Source: Candidatus Hydrogenedentales bacterium | Lineage (GTDB): Bacteria; Hydrogenedentota; Hydrogenedentia; Hydrogenedentales; GCA-2746185 | NCBI GenBank assembly: GCA_038916785.1 | Contig: JBCLBO010000001.1 | Location: forward strand, 1,676 to 65,675 | Direction of reading: 5' to 3' | DNA length: 64,000 nucleotides | In this document: piece after piece, positions 53,528 to 62,224 of the stretch | Layout of the letters: every line of letters starts with the position of its first letter | How positions within the stretch are numbered: position 1 is the first letter of the stretch | Translations under genes and position numbers: made by a program | The notes under the pieces: model-generated | What the model was told of the DNA's origin: nothing | Database searches by the model: none | Seen by the model: only the letters and a program-made list of their open reading frames with translations

Positions 53528-55552
53528 GTGCTCGCGCTCGACGACGAAGGGCTCGCCACGCTCGGAATCCAGGACGCGGCCCTTTGCCAGGTCTGGTGGG
53601 CAAACGGCGGCGCCGGCAATGATCCACCCGCCGGCATCGACACCCTGGCCGCGCGCATTCAGCGCTGGCTGGCGCTGGCCGATCGCCCGGAGCGAAAGTC
53701 CGAGGGCCGCCGCAGTCAGACGGTCCTGCGCGAACTGATCGATCGCCTCGAAGCCGGCGAGGTGGACAAGATGGCCCGCGATGAACTCGACCTGCTCGAG
53801 GCCGTCTACGGACTCTCCCAAGCCGCACAGAACCCCGAAACCTTCGCGCGCGTTCGCCGCGCTATCGCGCGGCGCCGCGCGCGCATCGCTGCGCGCCGCG
53901 CAAGCTCGCACGCCGTCATCGGCATGCCCGCGCTCACCGCCCGGTTCCTCGTCGTACGCGCGAGCGACATCCTGGTTGCGCCCCCGCGCGAAGTGCGCGT
54001 CATTGCCGGCGTCGAGCTGCCCTCGCGCGGCCCGGTCATGGTGCACAACGGCCACGTCCGCGTGCTCGGCGATGTCCCCCAAGGCACGACGCTTGTCGTC
54101 GAGGACGGCGCCTGCGTCGTCGACGGCTACGTCATCGGTAGGGTCGCCGTAAGCGGGAATTGCGAAGTCTTGGAAAATGTGTCAGGCGTCGTCATCAGTC
54201 GAAACGGCGACGTCCGGGCGAGAAACATTGTCGACGGCGCCTTCGTCGTCGCCAAGCGCGGCTGGGTCCATTGCAAGCGCGCCGCCGGCGCAAAACTCGT
54301 GTTCGCCGGGAACACCATTCGCGTCGCGGAGCGGTGTTCCCGCAGCCGGTTCTTCGCGCCTACGGTAAGCGTCGGCGGAAGTGTCGAGGCTGGAGAGCTT
54401 CACGTGTCCCGGCGAATAGAGGCGTCCGTATTTCGGAGCGCGCCCGACACGGCGCTTACGGTTGTGTTTCGCCGCAGCCTGTCATGCAAAGACTACGGCG
54501 AAGATCCCGGAGCGGTTATGACGACGAAACTCACGCGGGCCCTGCGATGCCGCGCGGAATTAGAGCGGGTGCGCCAGCGACTGAGCCTCGCGATCGGCGA
54601 GGCCGAGAATGCCGCGGAGACCGTGCTCACGTATGTCCTGGCCGGGGTCGTTGGCCAGGTCTCGGGGGAAGTGATGGCCGCGCAGCGCCGGCTCGATGTG
54701 CTCAATCGGGTGCTCATCGGCCTGCGCACGCTGTACGCCGTCGCGGAGACGAAGGTGGACACGGGGGAGGGCGACGAACTGGTTGCGGAGGACTCCGCGT
54801 CCGAGGGCGAGTTCCTCGATCAGTTGGATTCCGAAATCAATCAGATGATGTCGGAACAACCCGCCGATGCCTCGCTGAAAACGTCGTACGACGATGTGGT
54901 CCAGTCGCGCCAGCGCATGCGAAACACAGCCGGCAACCGACGGTTGATACGTGCGGCGCTGTCCGACATCTCCGAGAAACTCGCGCGTTGGCGCGATGAA
55001 TTCGAGCAACTGAAAAGAGACGTGCGAGAGGGGCGGGCAAAAATTCGCCAGTCCATGCAGGCCGCGGGTTTCTTCCAGGACCCCGGCGAAGCGCACTCCC
55101 GCGTCCTCGCGTTGCAGCGCCTGATCCAACGCGCCGCCACGCACGATCAGAACGACGGAATTCGCAAGCGGCTCGATGCGCCCTTCGCCACACTCCTCCT
55201 GCGGACGATCGAAAAGCGCCTCGCGGTCAGCCGAAAATACAAGGACGACGCGGCCCGCCTTCAGAAGCAGTTCGACGAGCTCCGGGATTACGTCTGGACC
55301 AACTTCCAGTTGCGAATCGACTCGGGCGACTCCTCCGACCGACGCATCGTCATGGAGGGGCGGTTCGAGACGAGTGTGCGGATGCTCTCCGATCCGGACT
55401 TTCTCTCGCTGCCGCCCGGCGAGGTGCCGCGCGGCGGCGCGCGCCTGGCCATCCCCTCGGGCGACCAGCGCGCGCGCTACGTCTGCGTCGACGGCCAGAT
55501 CGCCGAGGAGATCATCGAAGAGCCGGTCGAACCCGCATTGGCGGCGCTCTGA
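53528..55552 (+). CDS. Large beta-helix + coiled-coil protein, FapA/DUF342-like
   Basis: The central region has a repetitive G/V pattern (VLGDVPQGTTLVVEDGACVVDGYVIGRVAVSGNCEVLENVSGVVISRNGDVRARNIVDG...). A long helical region follows, then a C-terminal short beta segment. The family assignment is tentative. GTG start. Confidence 0.5.
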   Translation: MLALDDEGLATLGIQDAALCQVWWANGGAGNDPPAGIDTLAARIQRWLALADRPERKSEGRRSQTVLRELIDRLEAGEVDKMARDELDLLEAVYGLSQAAQNPETFARVRRAIARRRARIAARRASSHAVIGMPALTARFLVVRASDILVAPPREVRVIAGVELPSRGPVMVHNGHVRVLGDVPQGTTLVVEDGACVVDGYVIGRVAVSGNCEVLENVSGVVISRNGDVRARNIVDGAFVVAKRGWVHCKRAAGAKLVFAGNTIRVAERCSRSRFFAPTVSVGGSVEAGELHVSRRIEASVFRSAPDTALTVVFRRSLSCKDYGEDPGAVMTTKLTRALRCRAELERVRQRLSLAIGEAENAAETVLTYVLAGVVGQVSGEVMAAQRRLDVLNRVLIGLRTLYAVAETKVDTGEGDELVAEDSASEGEFLDQLDSEINQMMSEQPADASLKTSYDDVVQSRQRMRNTAGNRRLIRAALSDISEKLARWRDEFEQLKRDVREGRAKIRQSMQAAGFFQDPGEAHSRVLALQRLIQRAATHDQNDGIRKRLDAPFATLLLRTIEKRLAVSRKYKDDAARLQKQFDELRDYVWTNFQLRIDSGDSSDRRIVMEGRFETSVRMLSDPDFLSLPPGEVPRGGARLAIPSGDQRARYVCVDGQIAEEIIEEPVEPALAAL

Positions 55553-55640: not shown

Positions 55641-58600
55641 ATGAAGCCGAAAATTTCATGGGCGAGAATCGGAATCGTCGCGGCCGCCGCCGGCGCAGCC
55701 GCGCTCGCGGCCAGCCTCGCCACGCTCGAGCGCGCAGACGCGCACACTCGCATCACCACCGGCGTCACGTGGAGCGAGTACATCCGCCCCATCTTCATCC
55801 AGAAGTGCATGCCCTGCCACCATCCCGGAGGACTCGCGCCGGACTACGTCAACCTGACCACCTACGGCACCGACACCGTGCCTGGCGCGCGCGCATGGGC
55901 CGCGCAGATCGAAGACGAGATCATGCTCGGCCGCATGCCCCCGTGGAACGCGGACGAGCGCTTCGGAAATTTCTCCAACTCGCGCAGCCTGACCAAGGAC
56001 GAAAAAGACCTCGTCATATCCTGGATTCGAGGCGGCGGCCCACAGGGACCCTTGCGCAATCTGCCGCCGCCCGAAGAATTCGCCCGTCCCGAATGGACCT
56101 TCGGCCAACCGGACGTCGTCGTCGGGCTCCCGCAGGGCCACGTCGTCCCCGCGGACCAGCGATTCGATGCCGCCGAGGCCACCCTCGCCGTGCCGATCGA
56201 GCAGGACACCTTCATCACCGGTTACGAATTCCTCGCCGGCGATCCACAAAATGTCTCGCGCGTCACCGCCTGGCTCCACGACCCCGATGGCTTCGATCCG
56301 CAGCCCATCGAGATGGAAGTCACCTCCGGGTACGACCCCTACGCGCCCGTTACCGAGCGCGAGAAGACCCACCTGCGCCCGATGCCCCGCGGACCGCACT
56401 TCCTGGGCCAGTGGGTCAAAGGCGACGGCCCGGTGCTCTTTCCGGAGACCGCAGGCCGAAAGCTTTACGCCGGCTCGAGTATCCAGCTCCGCGTCGAATT
56501 CGTCCGCCCCGACGGGGCCGATTGGACCAAGGAAATCCGCGATAACACCCGCCTCGGGCTCTTCCTAGGCGCGCCGAACGAAGAATTCGATCTGCTCGTC
56601 GAATCCAGACTTATCGAGTCCAATCCGTTTACCGTGCTTGCAGGCGCGAAGGAACAGCACCGGATCGAATACACCCTGGAGGAAAACGTACATCTGCTCG
56701 GAATCGAGCCCCACCTCGGCCCCGTCGCCACTCAGATGAAAATCGAACTCTTCTATCCCGACGGCATGGCGCGCACAATCGTCTGGGTCTCGCATTACCA
56801 ACAGCGATGGGCCACCAGTTATCACTTCGCCGCGCCCGTCGCCGCCCCCAAGGGCACGCGCGTCGTCATTTCGGGGACCTTCGACAACACGAAGGACAAC
56901 GCCAACAATCCGAACGATCCCCCGGTGGACGTGAAGACCGGCCCCGGCTACCTCGATGAGCGTCTATACGCCTATTTGCACTACCAGCTCGACGACCACC
57001 TCAAATTGCAGCCGGTCGCCGTCACCAAAGTAGCGCCGGAGGGCGGCGGCATGCTCGGCGGACTCGGCGGAGACATTCTCACGGCCGCAGGCGCCGGCCG
57101 CAGCGTCCAGGAGACCACCGCACAGGTGGCCGAATCGCTCGAATCCTCCACCGCGCCCGAGCGCGTCCGCATCGCGTCGAATGGTTACCACCAGGTGCAA
57201 GGGATGATGCGCCGGCCGGGGGCCTTCTCCTTGTACGTATACGACGACCGCATGGAGCCGATCGATCCGCGAAACTTCGCGGGCGAGTTGCTGCTCGACG
57301 GCGGCGCGCGCACCGTGCCCCTCGCGCGCTACACGCCGGGCGACGATTTCCTCTCCGCCTGGTTGGACCCGAGTTTTCCGCAGTCCTTCGTAGCCAAACT
57401 TCAGATGGGTGGCGTCGAGGAAACGTTCGACTTCGCTTTCGCGGCCCCCTCGCCTGAAGTGACCGGCGCCGATCCTGGGACCAAAGCCGCATTCATCCAG
57501 CCGCCCCACGGCGGATGGCTCGAGAGCATCGAGGGCACGAGCTACCAGGTCGAAGCGGCCCTTCCGGACAACGGCGATCTACGGTTCTATTTTTACGGCC
57601 CCGGCATGAAACCTGTCGACCCGCGAAATTTCCGCGGCGAGATCGAGATTGTGCCGGACGCGCAACAATCCTCGATTAAATCCGTCATTCGCCTCGCTCA
57701 ACCCTCGCCGCGCGCGGAATATCTAGCGGCCAAGGTCTCGCCCGAACTTCCGCTGAAAGTCCGCGCATCGTTCGCCGTGGGCAATGGGCGCCGCGACTTT
57801 GAATTCGCGTTCGATGAGAAATCCGAAGCGCCCTGGGACGCCGCCGCGGACGCGTCCCCCGCGCAGCCGGTCATTCTCGGGCCGCACGGCAGTCCCGAAC
57901 TCTATCCCTCGGCCAACGGCTTCCATTTCATCGAGGCCGCGCTCCCGCGCCCCGGCGAATTGAGGCTTTACTTCTACGACGCGTGGAAAAATCCTGTGGA
58001 TCCTGGACTCTTCACCGGCGAAATCGAATTGAACGGCGTCAAGCAGCCGCTCGTGCGTCCAGTCCCGGGCGACGAATTCCTCGCCGCCTTCCACCCGCCG
58101 CAGACGCCGCTCGAGGTCAACGCGAGCCTGTGGATTGGCGGCAAGGAAGAAAAATTCAGGTTTCGGTTTAGCGACGTCACCCTCGATCCCGCCCAGCAGC
58201 GAGACATGGCGATCGCGCATATGAATCACACGCCACTCCACGGCGGGCAGTTCTTCATGGCGGACAACCTGTTCCACCACGTCGAAGGCACCCTGCCCGC
58301 CCCCGGCGAATTCCGGATGTACTTCTATGACGATTTCAGACGCCCCATCGACCCGAGAAATTTCTCCGGCTCCGCGCGCATCGAGCACCTCGACGAAAAC
58401 TCCGGTGACGTGACGGAGGAAATTTTCCCCCTCGAACTGCTCCGCCCCGGCGACGGATTTCTCACGGCCAAGATTCCCGCGTCCATGCCGGCCACCTTGT
58501 ACGCGTCCGCAACGCTCGGTGATGTCGACAAACGCTTCGACTTCCAATTCAACCAGGTGACCGTCGACACCGGCGGGCCCAAGCAGATGCCCGGTATGTC

Positions 58601-58988
58601 CGGCATGGCCGCCGGCCCGGGTGCCCCGGCGCAACACACACACATCCGGCCGCCCTTCGTCATTCCGGCGACCTTGAATGAAATCCTCGCCGCGATCGAT
58701 GCCAAGCAGGAAGACCTGCGCCAGCGGATCGCCGCGCAAGACTGGTACACCCTGTATCAGCCCGCGCTGGATATCTCCGATCTCGTCGGCGCGCTTGCGA
58801 AACTGGATGCAGGGGTCGATCCGCGCCAGAAGGGCCGGCTAAAGATCATGCTCGGCGCCGTGAACCGCTCCGTGAATAAGATGGACCGCGCCGGGGACAC
58901 CGCCGATACGCCCCGGATTCAATCCGCCTTCGACGAACTCGCCGGAAACCTGCGCGAAATCCACGCGATGTTCCCCGCCAAAAAGTGA
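55641..58988 (+). CDS. Secreted 1115-aa multidomain protein with four regions: a heme-c domain, a ligand-less PHM/DBH-like domain, 4 tandem ~95-115-aa modules, and a helical C-terminal domain
   Basis: Signal peptide MKPKISWARIGIVAAAAGAAALAASLA. Heme site CMPCHH. MPPW and SWIRGG motifs are shared with the 59714 gene. ATG at 55641. The ORF-track N-terminus (55176-55640) overlaps the upstream gene and is S/R-rich. Confidence 0.8.
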   Translation: MKPKISWARIGIVAAAAGAAALAASLATLERADAHTRITTGVTWSEYIRPIFIQKCMPCHHPGGLAPDYVNLTTYGTDTVPGARAWAAQIEDEIMLGRMPPWNADERFGNFSNSRSLTKDEKDLVISWIRGGGPQGPLRNLPPPEEFARPEWTFGQPDVVVGLPQGHVVPADQRFDAAEATLAVPIEQDTFITGYEFLAGDPQNVSRVTAWLHDPDGFDPQPIEMEVTSGYDPYAPVTEREKTHLRPMPRGPHFLGQWVKGDGPVLFPETAGRKLYAGSSIQLRVEFVRPDGADWTKEIRDNTRLGLFLGAPNEEFDLLVESRLIESNPFTVLAGAKEQHRIEYTLEENVHLLGIEPHLGPVATQMKIELFYPDGMARTIVWVSHYQQRWATSYHFAAPVAAPKGTRVVISGTFDNTKDNANNPNDPPVDVKTGPGYLDERLYAYLHYQLDDHLKLQPVAVTKVAPEGGGMLGGLGGDILTAAGAGRSVQETTAQVAESLESSTAPERVRIASNGYHQVQGMMRRPGAFSLYVYDDRMEPIDPRNFAGELLLDGGARTVPLARYTPGDDFLSAWLDPSFPQSFVAKLQMGGVEETFDFAFAAPSPEVTGADPGTKAAFIQPPHGGWLESIEGTSYQVEAALPDNGDLRFYFYGPGMKPVDPRNFRGEIEIVPDAQQSSIKSVIRLAQPSPRAEYLAAKVSPELPLKVRASFAVGNGRRDFEFAFDEKSEAPWDAAADASPAQPVILGPHGSPELYPSANGFHFIEAALPRPGELRLYFYDAWKNPVDPGLFTGEIELNGVKQPLVRPVPGDEFLAAFHPPQTPLEVNASLWIGGKEEKFRFRFSDVTLDPAQQRDMAIAHMNHTPLHGGQFFMADNLFHHVEGTLPAPGEFRMYFYDDFRRPIDPRNFSGSARIEHLDENSGDVTEEIFPLELLRPGDGFLTAKIPASMPATLYASATLGDVDKRFDFQFNQVTVDTGGPKQMPGMSGMAAGPGAPAQHTHIRPPFVIPATLNEILAAIDAKQEDLRQRIAAQDWYTLYQPALDISDLVGALAKLDAGVDPRQKGRLKIMLGAVNRSVNKMDRAGDTADTPRIQSAFDELAGNLREIHAMFPAKK

Positions 58989-59138
58989 CCCCGGCCGCTA
59001 TTTATGGCCGCCGTCGGGAACTCGACCGCGTCGTCCGGTGTTTTATCCACTACAGGCCGCCATCTACTCGTGGGGCGTGTCTTTTGTAAGTCTATAGCGT
59101 GAGGCGGGTTATGGGATTGCCCGGCGCCGGTGTCCGGC

Positions 59139-59167
59139 TTGACGCTTGGCCCGCGATTCCGTATCAT
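59139..59167 (+). promoter_or_regulatory. Candidate sigma-70-type promoter (TTGACG - 17 nt - TATCAT)
   Basis: -35 TTGACG at 59139-59144 and -10 TATCAT at 59162-59167, about 70 nt upstream of the 59240 start. Confidence 0.35.
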
Positions 59168-59239
59168 TGGGCCTCGCGCTCGTGTAGGTACAGTGCGCAA
59201 GTTCAACGGCGGCCCGCCCGGCCGATTCTGGGAGGAAAC

Positions 59240-59635
59240 ATGAAGCGTAAGTTCTCGGTGTTGTGTGCATCTGCGGTAGTGGCGGTCTTGGCGGGCGCGT
59301 GGGTGTACGCGCAGGACGCGGCGCCCAAAGGCGAGAAAGGCATCATCATCGGCGACCTCGTGGAGATCGGCACCTTCGCCATGCAGGGAAATACGCCCGA
59401 ACTCGTCGCCGCGCACAAGGCGCGGATCGAACTAGGGTTCCCCGTTGGCATCGTGGAAGAAGAGACCGGCGACGTGTGGGTCTGCGTGTACCGCAACAAC
59501 GCCCCGGCGTCGCATTTGGAACTCGCGAACAAGCACGTCGCCGAATATGTCGGCAAGAAAGTCACCGTCCAAGGTCTGAAGTACAAGGCCAAGGGTGTCA
59601 ACGTTATTCGGATGAGCGTGATCAGCGAATATTGA
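59240..59635 (+). CDS. Small secreted protein (131 aa), unknown function
   Basis: Signal peptide MKRKFSVLCASAVVAVLAGAWVYA. GGAGG lies 5-6 nt upstream of the ATG at 59240. No family recognised. Confidence 0.6.
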   Translation: MKRKFSVLCASAVVAVLAGAWVYAQDAAPKGEKGIIIGDLVEIGTFAMQGNTPELVAAHKARIELGFPVGIVEEETGDVWVCVYRNNAPASHLELANKHVAEYVGKKVTVQGLKYKAKGVNVIRMSVISEY

Positions 59636-59713
59636 TCCGCTTGAAATACCATTAAGGGCACGAGGCGCCGGCAACGGCGTAAACGCGATCGGAATTCAAA
59701 CGGGAGAATAATT

Positions 59714-60967
59714 ATGCATCAAGCACCGAGACTAGCCGCGCTGTGGGTCGCGTTGGCGGGCGCATCCTTCGCGGGCGCGGCGAGCGCGGAAATCACGTTC
59801 AACAAAGACGTGCTTCCGATCCTGCAACAAAACTGCCAGACCTGCCACCGCCCCTCGGGGACCAATCTCTCCGGCATGGTGGCCCCGATGTCGCTCATGA
59901 CCTACGAGGAAGTCCGCCCGTGGGCAAAGGCGATGGTCAAGGCCGTAAATGAGAAAGTAATGCCGCCCTGGGACGCGGCCGAACACTTCAACGGCGTCTT
60001 CAGTAACGAGCGCACGCTCACCGCGGGCGAAATCGCCATCCTGAACGACTGGATCAACCAAGGCGCCAAGCGCGGCAATCCGCAGGACGCCCCCGCGCCG
60101 ATTCACTTCGCCGACACCGGCTGGAACTTCGGCAACCCCGACCTCGTCGTGGACTTCCCGGAACCCTTCTTTGTGAAGGATGAGGTCCAGGATCTCTACG
60201 AGAACATCACCACGAAGCTCACCGCGGCGCAGCTTCCGGCCGATCGCTGGATCCGCAGCGTCGAATTCAAACCGGGTAGCGATGTCGTGCATCATATTAT
60301 CGGCCACGCCTCCACCGGCGGCGCCGCAGGCGATACGAGCCGCGGCATGATCGGCGGCAATGCGCCGGGCGCGGACCAGGCGCAGTGGGACGATGGCTTT
60401 GGAATGTTGCTAAAGAAGGACTCCGCCATCACCTTCGCCCTGCACTACCACAAGGAAGCTGGCCCGGGCACCGGCAAATGGGACAGCTCGCAGATCGGCC
60501 TCCAGTTCCACCCGGAGGGATCGAAGGTGACGCACCCGGTCACGACCTACCCGATCGGGCACGGCGGCTTCGAAATTCCGCCGAACCACGCGCACTGGAA
60601 AGTCGGTGCGTCGCACACCTTCGATGAAGACACACTCTTGCTCAATATGCTGCCGCACATGCACCTGCGCGGCGCGGCGGCCAAGTACACCGCGTACTAT
60701 CCCGACGGCGCTACGGAACTCCTTCTCGACGTGCCGCAGTGGGACTTCAATTGGCAGACGGGCTACAACTACAAGGTCCATAAGAACTTGCCCGCGGGTA
60801 CGCGCATCGAGATGGAGTTCTGGTTCAATAACTCGGCGGAGCGCGGCGAGGCGGCCGGTTTCAATTCGAACGAGGCAATCCGCTTCGGCGGCCCGACCAC
60901 GGACGAAATGGACCTCGCATGGATCACCGTGGCCCCGAAGAAAGAACAAGAGATTCCCGGCGACTAA
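59714..60967 (+). CDS. Secreted heme-c domain fused to PHM/DBH-like (copper type II ascorbate-dependent monooxygenase fold) domain with full Cu-ligand set
   Basis: Signal peptide. Heme site CQTCH. The candidate CuH set is VVHHIIGH plus ALHYH. The candidate CuM set is PHMHLRG plus GGPTTDEMDLAWI, which compares with the GGTSSDEMC motif I recall from PHM. GGGAG lies 7 nt upstream of the ATG. Confidence 0.8.
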   Translation: MHQAPRLAALWVALAGASFAGAASAEITFNKDVLPILQQNCQTCHRPSGTNLSGMVAPMSLMTYEEVRPWAKAMVKAVNEKVMPPWDAAEHFNGVFSNERTLTAGEIAILNDWINQGAKRGNPQDAPAPIHFADTGWNFGNPDLVVDFPEPFFVKDEVQDLYENITTKLTAAQLPADRWIRSVEFKPGSDVVHHIIGHASTGGAAGDTSRGMIGGNAPGADQAQWDDGFGMLLKKDSAITFALHYHKEAGPGTGKWDSSQIGLQFHPEGSKVTHPVTTYPIGHGGFEIPPNHAHWKVGASHTFDEDTLLLNMLPHMHLRGAAAKYTAYYPDGATELLLDVPQWDFNWQTGYNYKVHKNLPAGTRIEMEFWFNNSAERGEAAGFNSNEAIRFGGPTTDEMDLAWITVAPKKEQEIPGD

Positions 60968-61070
60968 TACGGGTCGTGTATAGTTGAGGAAGTGGAGAGG
61001 GGTTCGGCCAGTACCGGGTCCCTCCCGATGGTCTTATCGGGTGCTGCGGCCCTGAGAAAGGTGAAGAACC

Positions 61071-62132
61071 ATGTACGCGCGAATTCAAGGGTGGAAATGG
61101 GCGGTGCTGGGCGTGGCAGCGCTAGGCGCGGCCTGGATGCCGGCGGCCCGCGCCGAAGCCCCAGTGCCCTCGAAGCTGGACACCTCCGAGGCCCGCGACT
61201 TCCTGGGCAAGTGGATCGTCGCCATCGACATGATGGGCCGCAAGATGGATCTCGGCCTCACGGCCGTTGACCTCGAGGGTAAACTCGGAGCGACCATCGA
61301 CTCCGAGCAGATGCCCGAGCCGCTGGCGATCGACGACATCTCGATCGACGAACGCGGGCGCCTGGTGCTCAAGTATCCGATGAAGTTCGGCCAGCAGGAA
61401 TTCAAAGTCACCGTCACCGCCGAAGTCGCCGCCGAAGGCCTCGAAGGCACCTTCGCCGAAGATAGCGGCCTCTTCAGCGCACCCTTCACCGCCGCACTCG
61501 CCACCGGCGACGACGCCGAGATCCGCGAGACCCGCAGCCGCAACCGGCGCAACGCCTCGAATTCCGTGCGTCTGCGATTCGGCGAAGAAAAAGTCAATAT
61601 CAATTTCCACCCGCTCGCGACCAGTTCCGAGGACTACAAGCGCCTGCAAGCAATCAAGGATGGCGAAATTTTCGAGTTCGTCGGCGGTCGCGCAACAAAG
61701 CTGATGACCGACGTGAACATGAAGTTCGCGCAGGCCGTCGTGAAAAAGGAAAACGCCGCGCCGAACTATCCCGGCGTCTACAGCCTGTGGATGCGAAAAA
61801 CGGCCGAGGGCTGGGACCTGATTTTCAACAACGAGTCCGACGTCTGGGGAACGATGCACAATCCGGACGCGGACGCCGCGACGATAAAGATCGAGTCCGG
61901 CGCCGCAACTGCGGCCTCCGACACATTCAAAGTCGAACTCGAACAAACCGCGAACGGCGGCGTCCTGCGCCTGGTGTGGGGCGATAAGCAATGGTCCGCG
62001 CCCTTCGAGGTCGAAGGCTTCGTCGCGCCGCCTGCGCCGCCGCCAGCGGCAGCACCGGCGGCTGCGCCCACCGCGCCCACCGCACCCGCTGCGCCCACCG
62101 CACCCGCTGCGGCCCCTGCCCCGGCTGGCTAA
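61071..62132 (+). CDS. Secreted protein with C-terminal DUF2911-like domain and Ala/Pro-rich tail
   Basis: Signal peptide ...AAWMPAARA. The C-terminal half (VRLRFGEEKVNINFHPL...GVYSLWMRKTAEGWDLIFNNESDVWG...FKVELEQTANGGVLRLVWGDKQWSAPFEV) resembles my memory of DUF2911. The tail is PAPPPAAAPAAAPTAPTAP. Confidence 0.6.
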   Translation: MYARIQGWKWAVLGVAALGAAWMPAARAEAPVPSKLDTSEARDFLGKWIVAIDMMGRKMDLGLTAVDLEGKLGATIDSEQMPEPLAIDDISIDERGRLVLKYPMKFGQQEFKVTVTAEVAAEGLEGTFAEDSGLFSAPFTAALATGDDAEIRETRSRNRRNASNSVRLRFGEEKVNINFHPLATSSEDYKRLQAIKDGEIFEFVGGRATKLMTDVNMKFAQAVVKKENAAPNYPGVYSLWMRKTAEGWDLIFNNESDVWGTMHNPDADAATIKIESGAATAASDTFKVELEQTANGGVLRLVWGDKQWSAPFEVEGFVAPPAPPPAAAPAAAPTAPTAPAAPTAPAAAPAPAG

Positions 62133-62194: not shown

Positions 62195-62224
62195 GCCGGA
62201 GCGCATCCGGCCCGTTCTTTTTTT
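62195..62224 (+). terminator. Rho-independent terminator after the 61071 gene
   Basis: Stem GCCGGA/TCCGGC with loop GCGCA, followed by CCGTTCTTTTTTT. Confidence 0.6.

Follow-up and report, generated by a model that had tools for sequence, protein, structure and literature searches.

The DNA considered here, referred to as the window, is a 64,000-nucleotide stretch of contig JBCLBO010000001.1 (positions 1,676 to 65,675), which belongs to the assembly GCA_038916785.1 of a Candidatus Hydrogenedentales bacterium. Four consecutive genes in this window, denominated g1, g2, g3, and g4, were found by open reading frame calling on the + strand at the coordinates given in the initial annotation (Table 1), and the start of g1 at position 55641 is backed by the alignment of its orthologs. 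All four code for proteins with a Sec-type signal peptide, as had been claimed. In the translations, each N-terminus starts with a basic n-region, followed by a hydrophobic core and then by an AxA-type site, with cleavage between ADA and H in g1, VYA and Q in g2, ASA and E in g3, and ARA and E in g4. The central element of the cluster is g3, which combines a c-type cytochrome domain with a two-domain core homologous to peptidylglycine alpha-hydroxylating monooxygenase (PHM) and dopamine beta-monooxygenase (DBM, or DBH). The PHM/DBM two-copper monooxygenases are familiar from textbooks as eukaryotic enzymes by which peptide hormones and catecholamines are made.

The fold of g3 was modelled with AlphaFold2 from 33 relatives, with a predicted local distance difference test (pLDDT) of 78 and a predicted template modelling score (pTM) of 0.75. 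When this model was compared with the PDB by Foldseek, the 31 best matches were all PHM or DBH (E 5e-11 to 9e-9), with a probability of 1.00, approximately 285 aligned columns, and a target template modelling (TM) score of approximately 0.6, which bears out the PHM/DBH fold proposed in the initial annotation. The best match is chain B of DBH (E 5.2e-11), from the group formed by DBH, tyramine beta-monooxygenase, and MOXD1 (4ZEL), while PHM, the catalytic core of PAM (1PHM, 1OPM) and, like g3, a two-domain beta-sandwich, is matched at E ~1e-10. The next matches in the PDB are unrelated jelly-roll capsid proteins (E>1e-5, TM 0.19).

The same relationship is found in the sequences of the relatives. 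Among the 33 close relatives, Pfam recovers PF03712 in 28 (best E 7.8e-6) and PF01082 in 12 (best E 8.3e-5), and in a set of 76 longer, more distant relatives, the two families were recovered at E<=1e-4 in 19 and five, respectively. These copper-domain matches lie below the cut-off wherever bit scores are listed (18.6-19.6 versus 23 bits, for example), and in the relatives their E-values are at best 7.8e-6 and 2.5e-8. With a profile restricted to the copper domain and built from 15 diverse representatives (profile A2), PHM was recovered from the PDB sequences at E 8e-10, and DBH at E 7e-7, and it was only once the profile had been cut to this domain and diversified that PHM was found by sequence. 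Given the fold of the model, the Pfam matches of the relatives, and the copper-domain profile, which represent three independent lines of evidence, the homology of g3 to PHM/DBH can be considered established, and it is near certain that g3 belongs to this lineage with its metal sites intact in sequence. The protein reaches the gathering threshold of neither PF01082 nor PF03712, and is a distant sister group of the Cu2_monoox families, without curated membership.

The six copper ligands of PHM, namely H107, H108, H172, H242, H244, and M314, pair one to one, and in the same order (HH, H, HxH, M), with residues of the g3 family. In the alignment to profile A2, the family motif vvHHvl corresponds to TVHHMLLF of PHM (ligands H107 and H108), evHYh to QVHYG (H172), PHmHlrGk to VHTHHLGK (H242 and H244), and ttdEM to SSDEMC (M314), and both the HxHxxG and the DEM motifs are shared. 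The copper sites of DBH are the same. Conservation was assessed in 120 full-length domains, each from a different 50%-identity cluster. Both E398 and M399 are present in all 120, and H193, H194, H244, H315, and H317 are each present in 119, so the pattern of a His3 site (CuH) and a His2Met site (CuM) read by the initial annotation is well founded. That annotation had also taken ALHYH as a ligand motif, which holds for H244, but not for H246, a poorly conserved position occupied by Thr in 58 of the 120 relatives; this variability identifies H244 as the third CuH ligand.

The haem residues C41, C44, H45, and M83-P-P-W86 are kept in 120/120 relatives (the second proline in 119), and the motifs quoted originally for the haem and copper sites (CQTCH, MPPW, DWINQGA, VVHHIIGH, ALHYH, PHMHLRG, and TTDEMD) are all present, and invariant or nearly so in the family. 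The features of a class I-type cytochrome c are found in g3, that is, CXXCH, a distal Met candidate, and the signal peptide, with M83 being the likely axial haem ligand. The cytochrome Pfam matches of g3 are sub-threshold (16-18 bits versus cut-offs of 21-27), as are those in NCBIfam, and the Pfam match of the relative P0121 is above threshold, at 37 bits. The suggestion that PSCyt1 or DUF3347 would be found did not hold, given that Pfam detects neither family in g1 or g3.

The differences from the eukaryotic enzymes are equally marked. Identity between PHM and g3 is 14-18%, and the disulfides of PHM are absent, since C41 and C44 are the only cysteines of g3. Whereas PHM uses soluble ascorbate, g3 is a bacterial protein, predicted to be periplasmic, with a fused cytochrome c. 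In DBH, the core is accompanied by an N-terminal DOMON and a C-terminal dimerisation domain, in place of which g3 has the c-type haem domain, and nothing in g3 points to a phenylethylamine substrate.

Table 1. Features of the g1-g4 cluster, with positions counted from the first nucleotide of the window.
Feature	Position	Strand	Remarks
g1, 1115-aa secreted copper-less paralog (predicted)	55641..58988	+	signal peptide, haem c, degenerate PHM-like core, four repeats, helical C-terminal domain
g1 haem c motif CMPCH, residues 56-60	55806..55820	+	C-x-x-C-H in 37/39 subfamily members
g1 degenerate PHM-like double beta-sandwich core, ~residues 150-450	56088..56990	+	BLASTP, MAFFT, hmmalign
g1 four tandem repeats of ~110 aa	57171..58553	+	57171-57467, 57501-57818, 57885-58208, 58209-58553
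g1 C-terminal helical domain, ~residues 1000-1115	58638..58985	+	conserved HxHxRPP, DRAGDxAD
Promoter-like site in the g1-g2 gap	59139..59167	+	TTGACG-17-TATCAT, 10/12 positions; consensus match only
g2, 131-aa secreted protein	59240..59635	+	immediately precedes g3-type genes in 10 loci
g3, 417-aa secreted cytochrome c - PHM/DBH-like two-copper protein (predicted)	59714..60967	+	
g3 mono-haem cytochrome c domain, ~residues 26-125	59789..60088	+	CQTCH 59834-59848; MPPW 59960-59971
g3 CuH-type domain, ~residues 135-270	60116..60523	+	H193/H194 at 60290-60295; H244 at 60443-60445
g3 CuM-type domain, ~residues 271-410	60524..60943	+	H315-x-H317 at 60656-60664; M399 at 60908-60910
g4, 353-aa secreted two-domain beta protein	61071..62132	+	small beta-barrel ~46-143; DUF2911 ~164-314; Pro/Ala-rich tail
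Intrinsic-terminator-like hairpin between g4 and the convergent COX2 gene	62195..62224	.	stem 62195-62211 G+C-rich, then T-run

The family to which g3 belongs is extensive. A word-indexed search recovered more than 3,700 relatives, many of them from metagenome-assembled genomes (MAGs) of the Hydrogenedentota, and most either unnamed or labelled "mono/diheme cytochrome c family protein". In an exhaustive profile search over 1.84 billion cluster representatives (50% identity), the number of clusters recovered was at least 17,860 at E<=1e-3, and fell to 11,260 at E<=1e-10 and to 3,285 at E<=1e-30, with members from the Hydrogenedentota, Acidobacteriota, Sumerlaeota, and Planctomycetota that carry public names such as "hypothetical protein", "cytochrome c", or "redoxin domain-containing protein". 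Judged from its sequences, the family is a distinct, very large bacterial sister group of PHM/DBM, of which a c-type haem domain at the N-terminus is an obligatory component. In the literature, no bacterial protein of the PHM type with a fused cytochrome was found to be described, an absence which is no proof for the wider literature, and a 2025 review of the PHM-type enzymes covers only PHM, DBM, tyramine beta-monooxygenase (TBM), and the plant BURP cyclases, with no bacterial member (PMC12164859).

Within this family, g3 is the minimal two-module form. An N-terminal extension of approximately 200 aa, found in 39 of the 76 longer members, is an AhpC/TSA thioredoxin-fold domain, and the other modules carried by the relatives include CBM48, SGNH/GDSL, alpha/beta-hydrolase, EF-hand, lipocalin (Lipocalin_5 in one relative), and DUF2911. 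The proteins of AhpC/TSA - cytochrome c - PHM-like architecture, one of which, from a Pirellulales MAG, is annotated as "redoxin domain-containing protein", align with the profile of the g3 family over their full length (E ~1e-80 to 1e-175), and their haem and copper motifs are identical. They differ from g3 in the additional N-terminal segment, and sometimes in the presence of CBM48, SGNH, alpha/beta-hydrolase, or EF-hand modules, and no characterised protein of this type was found in the literature or annotation searched. In the fused AhpC/TSA domains (relatives P0121-P0266), the CxxC motif is missing from 14 of 15 sampled, and the PxxxTxxC peroxiredoxin motif is found in none of the 15, for which reason the fused thioredoxin fold may be redox-inactive.

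The neighbourhood of g3-type genes was examined in 79 loci from GTDB species genomes, which came from the Hydrogenedentota, MAGs labelled Nitrospirales or Rhodothermaeota, the Sumerlaeota, and the Acidobacteriota (Thermoanaerobaculia, Multivorans, and Holophagales). A g4-type gene adjoins the g3-type gene in 29 of these loci, on the same strand and just downstream in 28, while g2 is found directly upstream in 10, all of which also hold g4. Full orthologs of g1 are found only in L001 (74% identity), L003, and L004 (49% in both), each with the order g1-g2-g3-g4. The co-location of the four genes on which the initial annotation was built is thus sustained for the g3-g4 pair and the g2-g3-g4 trio, while the complete set is limited to three close relatives. 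The g3 paralogs are often arranged in tandem, and single MAGs contain many copies, which are distributed over at least seven contigs in one Hydrogenedentota MAG. The taxon labels of the closest genomes conflict, given that L001, with 79% identity to g3, is labelled Nitrospirales, L002 (89%) Rhodothermaeota, and L003 (67%) Hydrogenedentota, and some of these MAGs have probably been misclassified.

The strongest evidence of a link between g3 and g4 is their natural fusion. In three relatives (P0128, P0131, and P0135), the cytochrome c - PHM-like core is followed by a g4-type DUF2911 domain in a single polypeptide, and this domain matches the hidden Markov model of the g4 family at E 1e-38, 5e-37, and 5e-17, respectively. 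The DUF2911 family (PF11138), which was among those suggested in the initial annotation, is found above its cut-off in g4 (43.9 bits versus 27, E 2.7e-11, residues 234-311), and was recovered in 32 of the 33 homologs of g4. The positions that do not vary in this protein hold aromatic residues, Gly, Asn, or Asp (NYPGVYSLW...W.L.FN...D.WGT), and none of its His, Cys, or Met residues is conserved, a pattern that speaks for binding rather than for a function in metal or redox chemistry. The AlphaFold2 model of g4 (pLDDT 85) has two beta domains, and no significant whole-chain match to the PDB was obtained with it (best E 5e-3), nor did the g4 profile match any PDB sequence, and no relative with DUF2911 has been solved. 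The N-terminal domain weakly resembles the barrels of fatty-acid-binding proteins (FABP), lipocalins, and Cap15 (probability ~0.98-1.00), which, at E>=0.06, is a lead rather than a finding. The small protein g2 also has no conserved His, Cys, or Met in its alignment, and neither Pfam nor NCBIfam matches, relatives of known function, nor fusion partners were found for it. A likeness of g2 to the designed "Pizza" propellers in the PDB was considered spurious.

Other genes accompany g3 homologs in particular lineages. In 22 loci of Acidobacteria (within L039-L078), one or two genes for secreted two-domain proteins of the VOC/glyoxalase fold (PF00903, E 5e-19) are located directly upstream of the g3 homolog. 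They represent a lineage-specific partner distinct from g2 and g4, and may hint at substrates of the aromatic or catechol type. A divergent resistance-nodulation-division (RND) pump is found further upstream. A pyrroloquinoline quinone (PQQ) dehydrogenase (PF01011, E 1e-184) follows g3-g4 in approximately seven loci, mostly of the Hydrogenedentota and their relatives. Known PQQ dehydrogenases pass electrons to c-type cytochromes, and those found here are possible electron sources for g3. Further neighbours in the operons include a sensor kinase with a sigma-54 regulator, an esterase, a thiamine pyrophosphate (TPP) enzyme, a Vgb-lyase-like propeller, and PSCyt/DUF1501 proteins.

The large protein g1 is a paralog of g3, as had been proposed, with a BLASTP match at E=6e-26 (25% identity over approximately 390 residues) that covers the haem domain and both sandwich domains. 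At the positions of the g3 ligands, H193 is replaced by S, H194 by R, H244 by E, H317 by G, and M399 by R, so that H315 alone is kept (H358 of g1), while CMPCH and MPPW are both retained. The loss of the copper sites and the retention of the haem site, which had been read from g1 alone, extend to a subfamily of 39 long homologs from the Acidobacteria and Hydrogenedentes, in which CXXCH and MPPW are kept and the copper ligands are replaced (H194 by R in 33/39, H244 by E in 26/39, and H317 by G in 24/39, with the Met absent). As the haem motifs are kept and the substitutions are common to the subfamily, g1 does not represent a decaying copy.

The remainder of g1 is made up of its repeats and the helical C-terminal domain. 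The repeats recover one another by internal tblastn matches (E 9e-18, 8e-17, and 5e-13), and the last repeat forms, together with the helical domain, a module conserved in 48 homologs, with the motifs HMDHxPxHGGQFFMAxNxYHHxEG in the last repeat, YDDfKxPxDPRNF, HsHxRpP, and DRAGDxAD. In the orthologs from L003 and L004, and in several other relatives (P0312, P0333, P0348, P0351, and P0355 among those with HMBD), heavy-metal-binding domains (HMBD, PF19335, E down to 6e-14) are located ahead of this module, and proteins composed of HMBD and the C-terminal module alone also exist. In the orthologs from L003 and L004, Cys-rich motifs of the YWCPMRG type occupy the region of the four repeats, and Pfam finds no HMBD match in the g1 of the window. 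This gain of His/Met-rich repeats in g1, and of HMBD in its relatives, favours a metal-handling or electron-shuttling accessory over an enzyme, and g1 would more likely be such an accessory, bearing haem, devoid of the copper sites, and with probable metal-binding repeats.

Two Acidobacteria genes of the g1 type, P0318 (L080, 8001-10208) and P0309 (L081, 8001-10268), each follow a phosphoribosyltransferase gene, and have in their vicinity a gene for the ribosomal protein S14 or L31, together with genes for an M20 peptidase and for an RND pump whose adaptor resembles CusB/CzcB. Extra copies of L31 and S14 are typical of zinc-limitation regulons, and their proximity to g1-like genes hints at a role in metal supply. 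Residues 895-922 of g1 (58323-58406), YFYDDFRRPIDPRNF..., match the NCBIfam family NF049938 (ScoD enoyl-ACP glycyltransferase) at E 1.9e-8 and 34 bits, and also Pfam FcoT, weakly. This match corresponds to a short motif common to all four repeats of g1.

The reading that we favour, with a probability of roughly 60%, is that g3 is a periplasmic haem-copper monooxygenase in which the fused cytochrome c takes the place of ascorbate, with g4 as its substrate-binding partner. If haem and copper occupy the predicted sites, the haem of g3 would receive electrons either from the cytochrome c pool (periplasmic or respiratory) or from a dehydrogenase close by, and these would pass to CuH (H193, H194, and H244) and from there to CuM (H315, H317, and M399). 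At CuM, O2 would be activated and a C-H bond of the bound substrate hydroxylated, with the cytochrome standing in for the ascorbate of the eukaryotic enzymes. In this scheme, g4 would be physically associated with g3, probably as the subunit that binds or presents the substrate, and g2 may be a further small partner in the Hydrogenedentota-like lineage of the window. As an old paralog that keeps the haem and the fold, g1 may load copper into g3, shuttle electrons, or play some other role. For the catalytic chemistry itself, as set out here, the odds are roughly even.

A number of points weigh against this reading. The metal content and activity of g3 are predicted from its sequence. The significant profile match anticipated in the initial annotation was obtained with the relatives and the copper-domain profile, but not with g3 alone, for which the Pfam and NCBIfam scans returned no Cu2_monoox match at E<=1 (the scans of g1 and g2 likewise gave no copper domain), and the full-length profile of the g3 family did not find PHM among the PDB sequences. 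The PHM residues R240, N316, and Y318, which are the substrate anchors in structure 1OPM, align with L313, L401, and W403 of g3 in the profile A2 alignment, for which reason the substrate cannot be inferred from homology, and g3 is not a peptidylglycine enzyme in disguise. The AhpC/TSA domain fused to about half of the longer relatives may point to peroxide or thiol chemistry, and no common pathway emerges from the VOC proteins, PQQ dehydrogenases, two-component system, and esterases encoded in the loci examined.

Some of these points would be accommodated if g3 were an oxidase or reductase of a small molecule, acting as an O2 sink, on peroxide or superoxide, on nitrite or hydroxylamine, or in the oxidation of Cu(I), with no organic hydroxylation. 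Some copper nitrite reductases carry a fused cytochrome c, and the AhpC/TSA fusions (39/76), together with the lack of an evident organic-substrate pathway in the neighbourhoods, would also be consistent with this. In addition, the titles of the PDB entries show that the copper in crystals of PHM binds nitrite, azide, and CO. This possibility is nevertheless considered unlikely, given that the His3 and His2Met set of the monooxygenases and the E-M pair are kept in essentially all of the relatives, that CxxC is missing from 14 of the 15 fused redoxin domains sampled, and that the partners and fusions are of the binding type (DUF2911, the lipocalin-like barrel, CBM48, and esterase/SGNH) rather than redox proteins, which fits an organic or polymeric substrate better.

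The other explanations concern the cluster as a whole. A function in copper homeostasis or cuproenzyme assembly, in which g3 and g1 would be chaperones that metallate, for example, the adjacent CuA/CuB oxidase, finds some encouragement in the COX1 and COX2 genes located convergently and immediately downstream, in the HMBD (E down to 6e-14) and conserved His/Met motif of the g1 relatives, and in the Acidobacteria g1-like genes found close to CusB/CzcB-type RND adaptors and S14/L31 genes. However, the oxidase is convergent rather than co-transcribed, and COX1 is found in this position in only 4 of the 79 loci (L001, L002, L003, and L071), all close relatives, so that the link to the haem-copper oxidase raised in the initial annotation has been set aside as weak. 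The many g3 paralogs per genome (on at least seven contigs in the MAG mentioned above) fit substrate diversification rather than a chaperone, and no match to Sco, PCuAC, CopC, or Cox11 was found among the proteins scanned, all of which makes this explanation very improbable. Slightly less probable still is that the four genes are adjacent by chance or through lineage-specific synteny, with g1 in particular having no functional tie to g2-g3-g4. The restriction of the full order to L001, L003, and L004, the Acidobacteria g1-like genes found elsewhere in the genome, and the 251-bp gap with its promoter-like site between g1 and g2 would all be expected here. For g2-g3-g4, chance is refuted by the 10 loci with the trio, the 29 with g3-g4, and the three DUF2911 fusions, and even in the case of g1, the orthologs from L003 and L004 are only 49% identical, yet still adjoin g2-g3, and the haem domain and fold are common to g1 and g3.

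The favoured reading, that g3 is a haem-fed copper monooxygenase, has parallels in systems that are analogous rather than homologous. In the lytic polysaccharide monooxygenases (LPMOs), supplied by the cytochrome of cellobiose dehydrogenase (CDH), and in the cytochrome c-fused copper nitrite reductases, a haem delivers single electrons in succession to an extracytoplasmic copper site. These proteins are unrelated to g3 in both fold and copper site (a histidine brace in the former, and type 1/type 2 copper in the latter), and in the CDH/LPMO system, the haem is located on a separate protein, whereas in g3 it is fused. Copper chemistry of the PHM-like His2Met type is also found outside the classical animal enzymes, in the plant BURP-domain peptide cyclases (PMC12164859). 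The substrates of these plant proteins are core peptides fused to the proteins themselves, the haem domain found in g3 is absent from them, and the 50 best structural matches listed for the g3 model do not include them.

Beyond the window, the six-ligand site of PHM/DBM is found in at least 17,860 bacterial clusters, always joined to a c-type cytochrome, and is unrecognised in public annotation. The broader proposal, which we hold tentatively, at a little under even odds, is that these proteins form a very large, unrecognised class of bacterial periplasmic haem-copper monooxygenases in several phyla, a counterpart of PHM/DBM without ascorbate, to which substrates would be presented by DUF2911/lipocalin-like partners, accompanied by a copper-less pseudo-enzyme paralog for metal or electrons. 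With their centres in the order cytochrome c, CuH, and CuM, they would take electrons straight from the respiratory cytochrome c pool, or else from PQQ dehydrogenases of the periplasm, and use them to hydroxylate C-H bonds in substrates outside the cytoplasm. If these proteins are active, they would show that this chemistry can run without ascorbate, on built-in haem electrons, and would provide a simple soluble system for the study of the long-debated transfer of electrons from CuH to CuM, as well as representing a new class of extracytoplasmic C-H oxidising enzymes in poorly known, uncultured, organic-matter-degrading phyla. The copper-less paralog and the DUF2911 partner would also give two domains of unknown function their first functional context.

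The layout of the cluster suggests that it may be made up of two transcription units, given the 251 bp between g1 and g2 and the promoter-like site located in this gap. The other genes are separated by 78 bp (g2-g3) and 103 bp (g3-g4), and the ATG of g2 is preceded by a GGAGG ribosome-binding site. The terminator which had been placed at the end of the cluster is real, and, as the hairpin also scores on the - strand, it appears to be bidirectional, serving both g4 and the convergent COX2 gene. The genes on the far side are indeed of the haem-copper oxidase type, as annotated initially, with Pfam matches to a CuA-type COX2 (PF00116, E 5e-8) and COX1 (PF00115, E 5e-63), which indicates that the organism has an aerobic cytochrome c chain. 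Neither Rfam families nor tRNAs were found by the respective scans in this region or in the whole window.

Upstream of g1, at 53528-55552 on the + strand, lies a gene for a 674-aa cytoplasmic protein with a weak match to a FapA-like beta-solenoid (E 0.012) and a long, coiled-coil-like C-terminal half, which is kept upstream of g1 only in L001 (63% identity). Over positions 1-50000 of the window, the GC skew is positive up to approximately 34 kb and then negative as far as 48 kb, and two stretches of low GC content are found at 38-40 kb (0.52) and 48-50 kb (0.53), in comparison with approximately 0.63 elsewhere. The change in skew and these low-GC stretches could reflect either a switch in the strand bias of the genes or inserted DNA.

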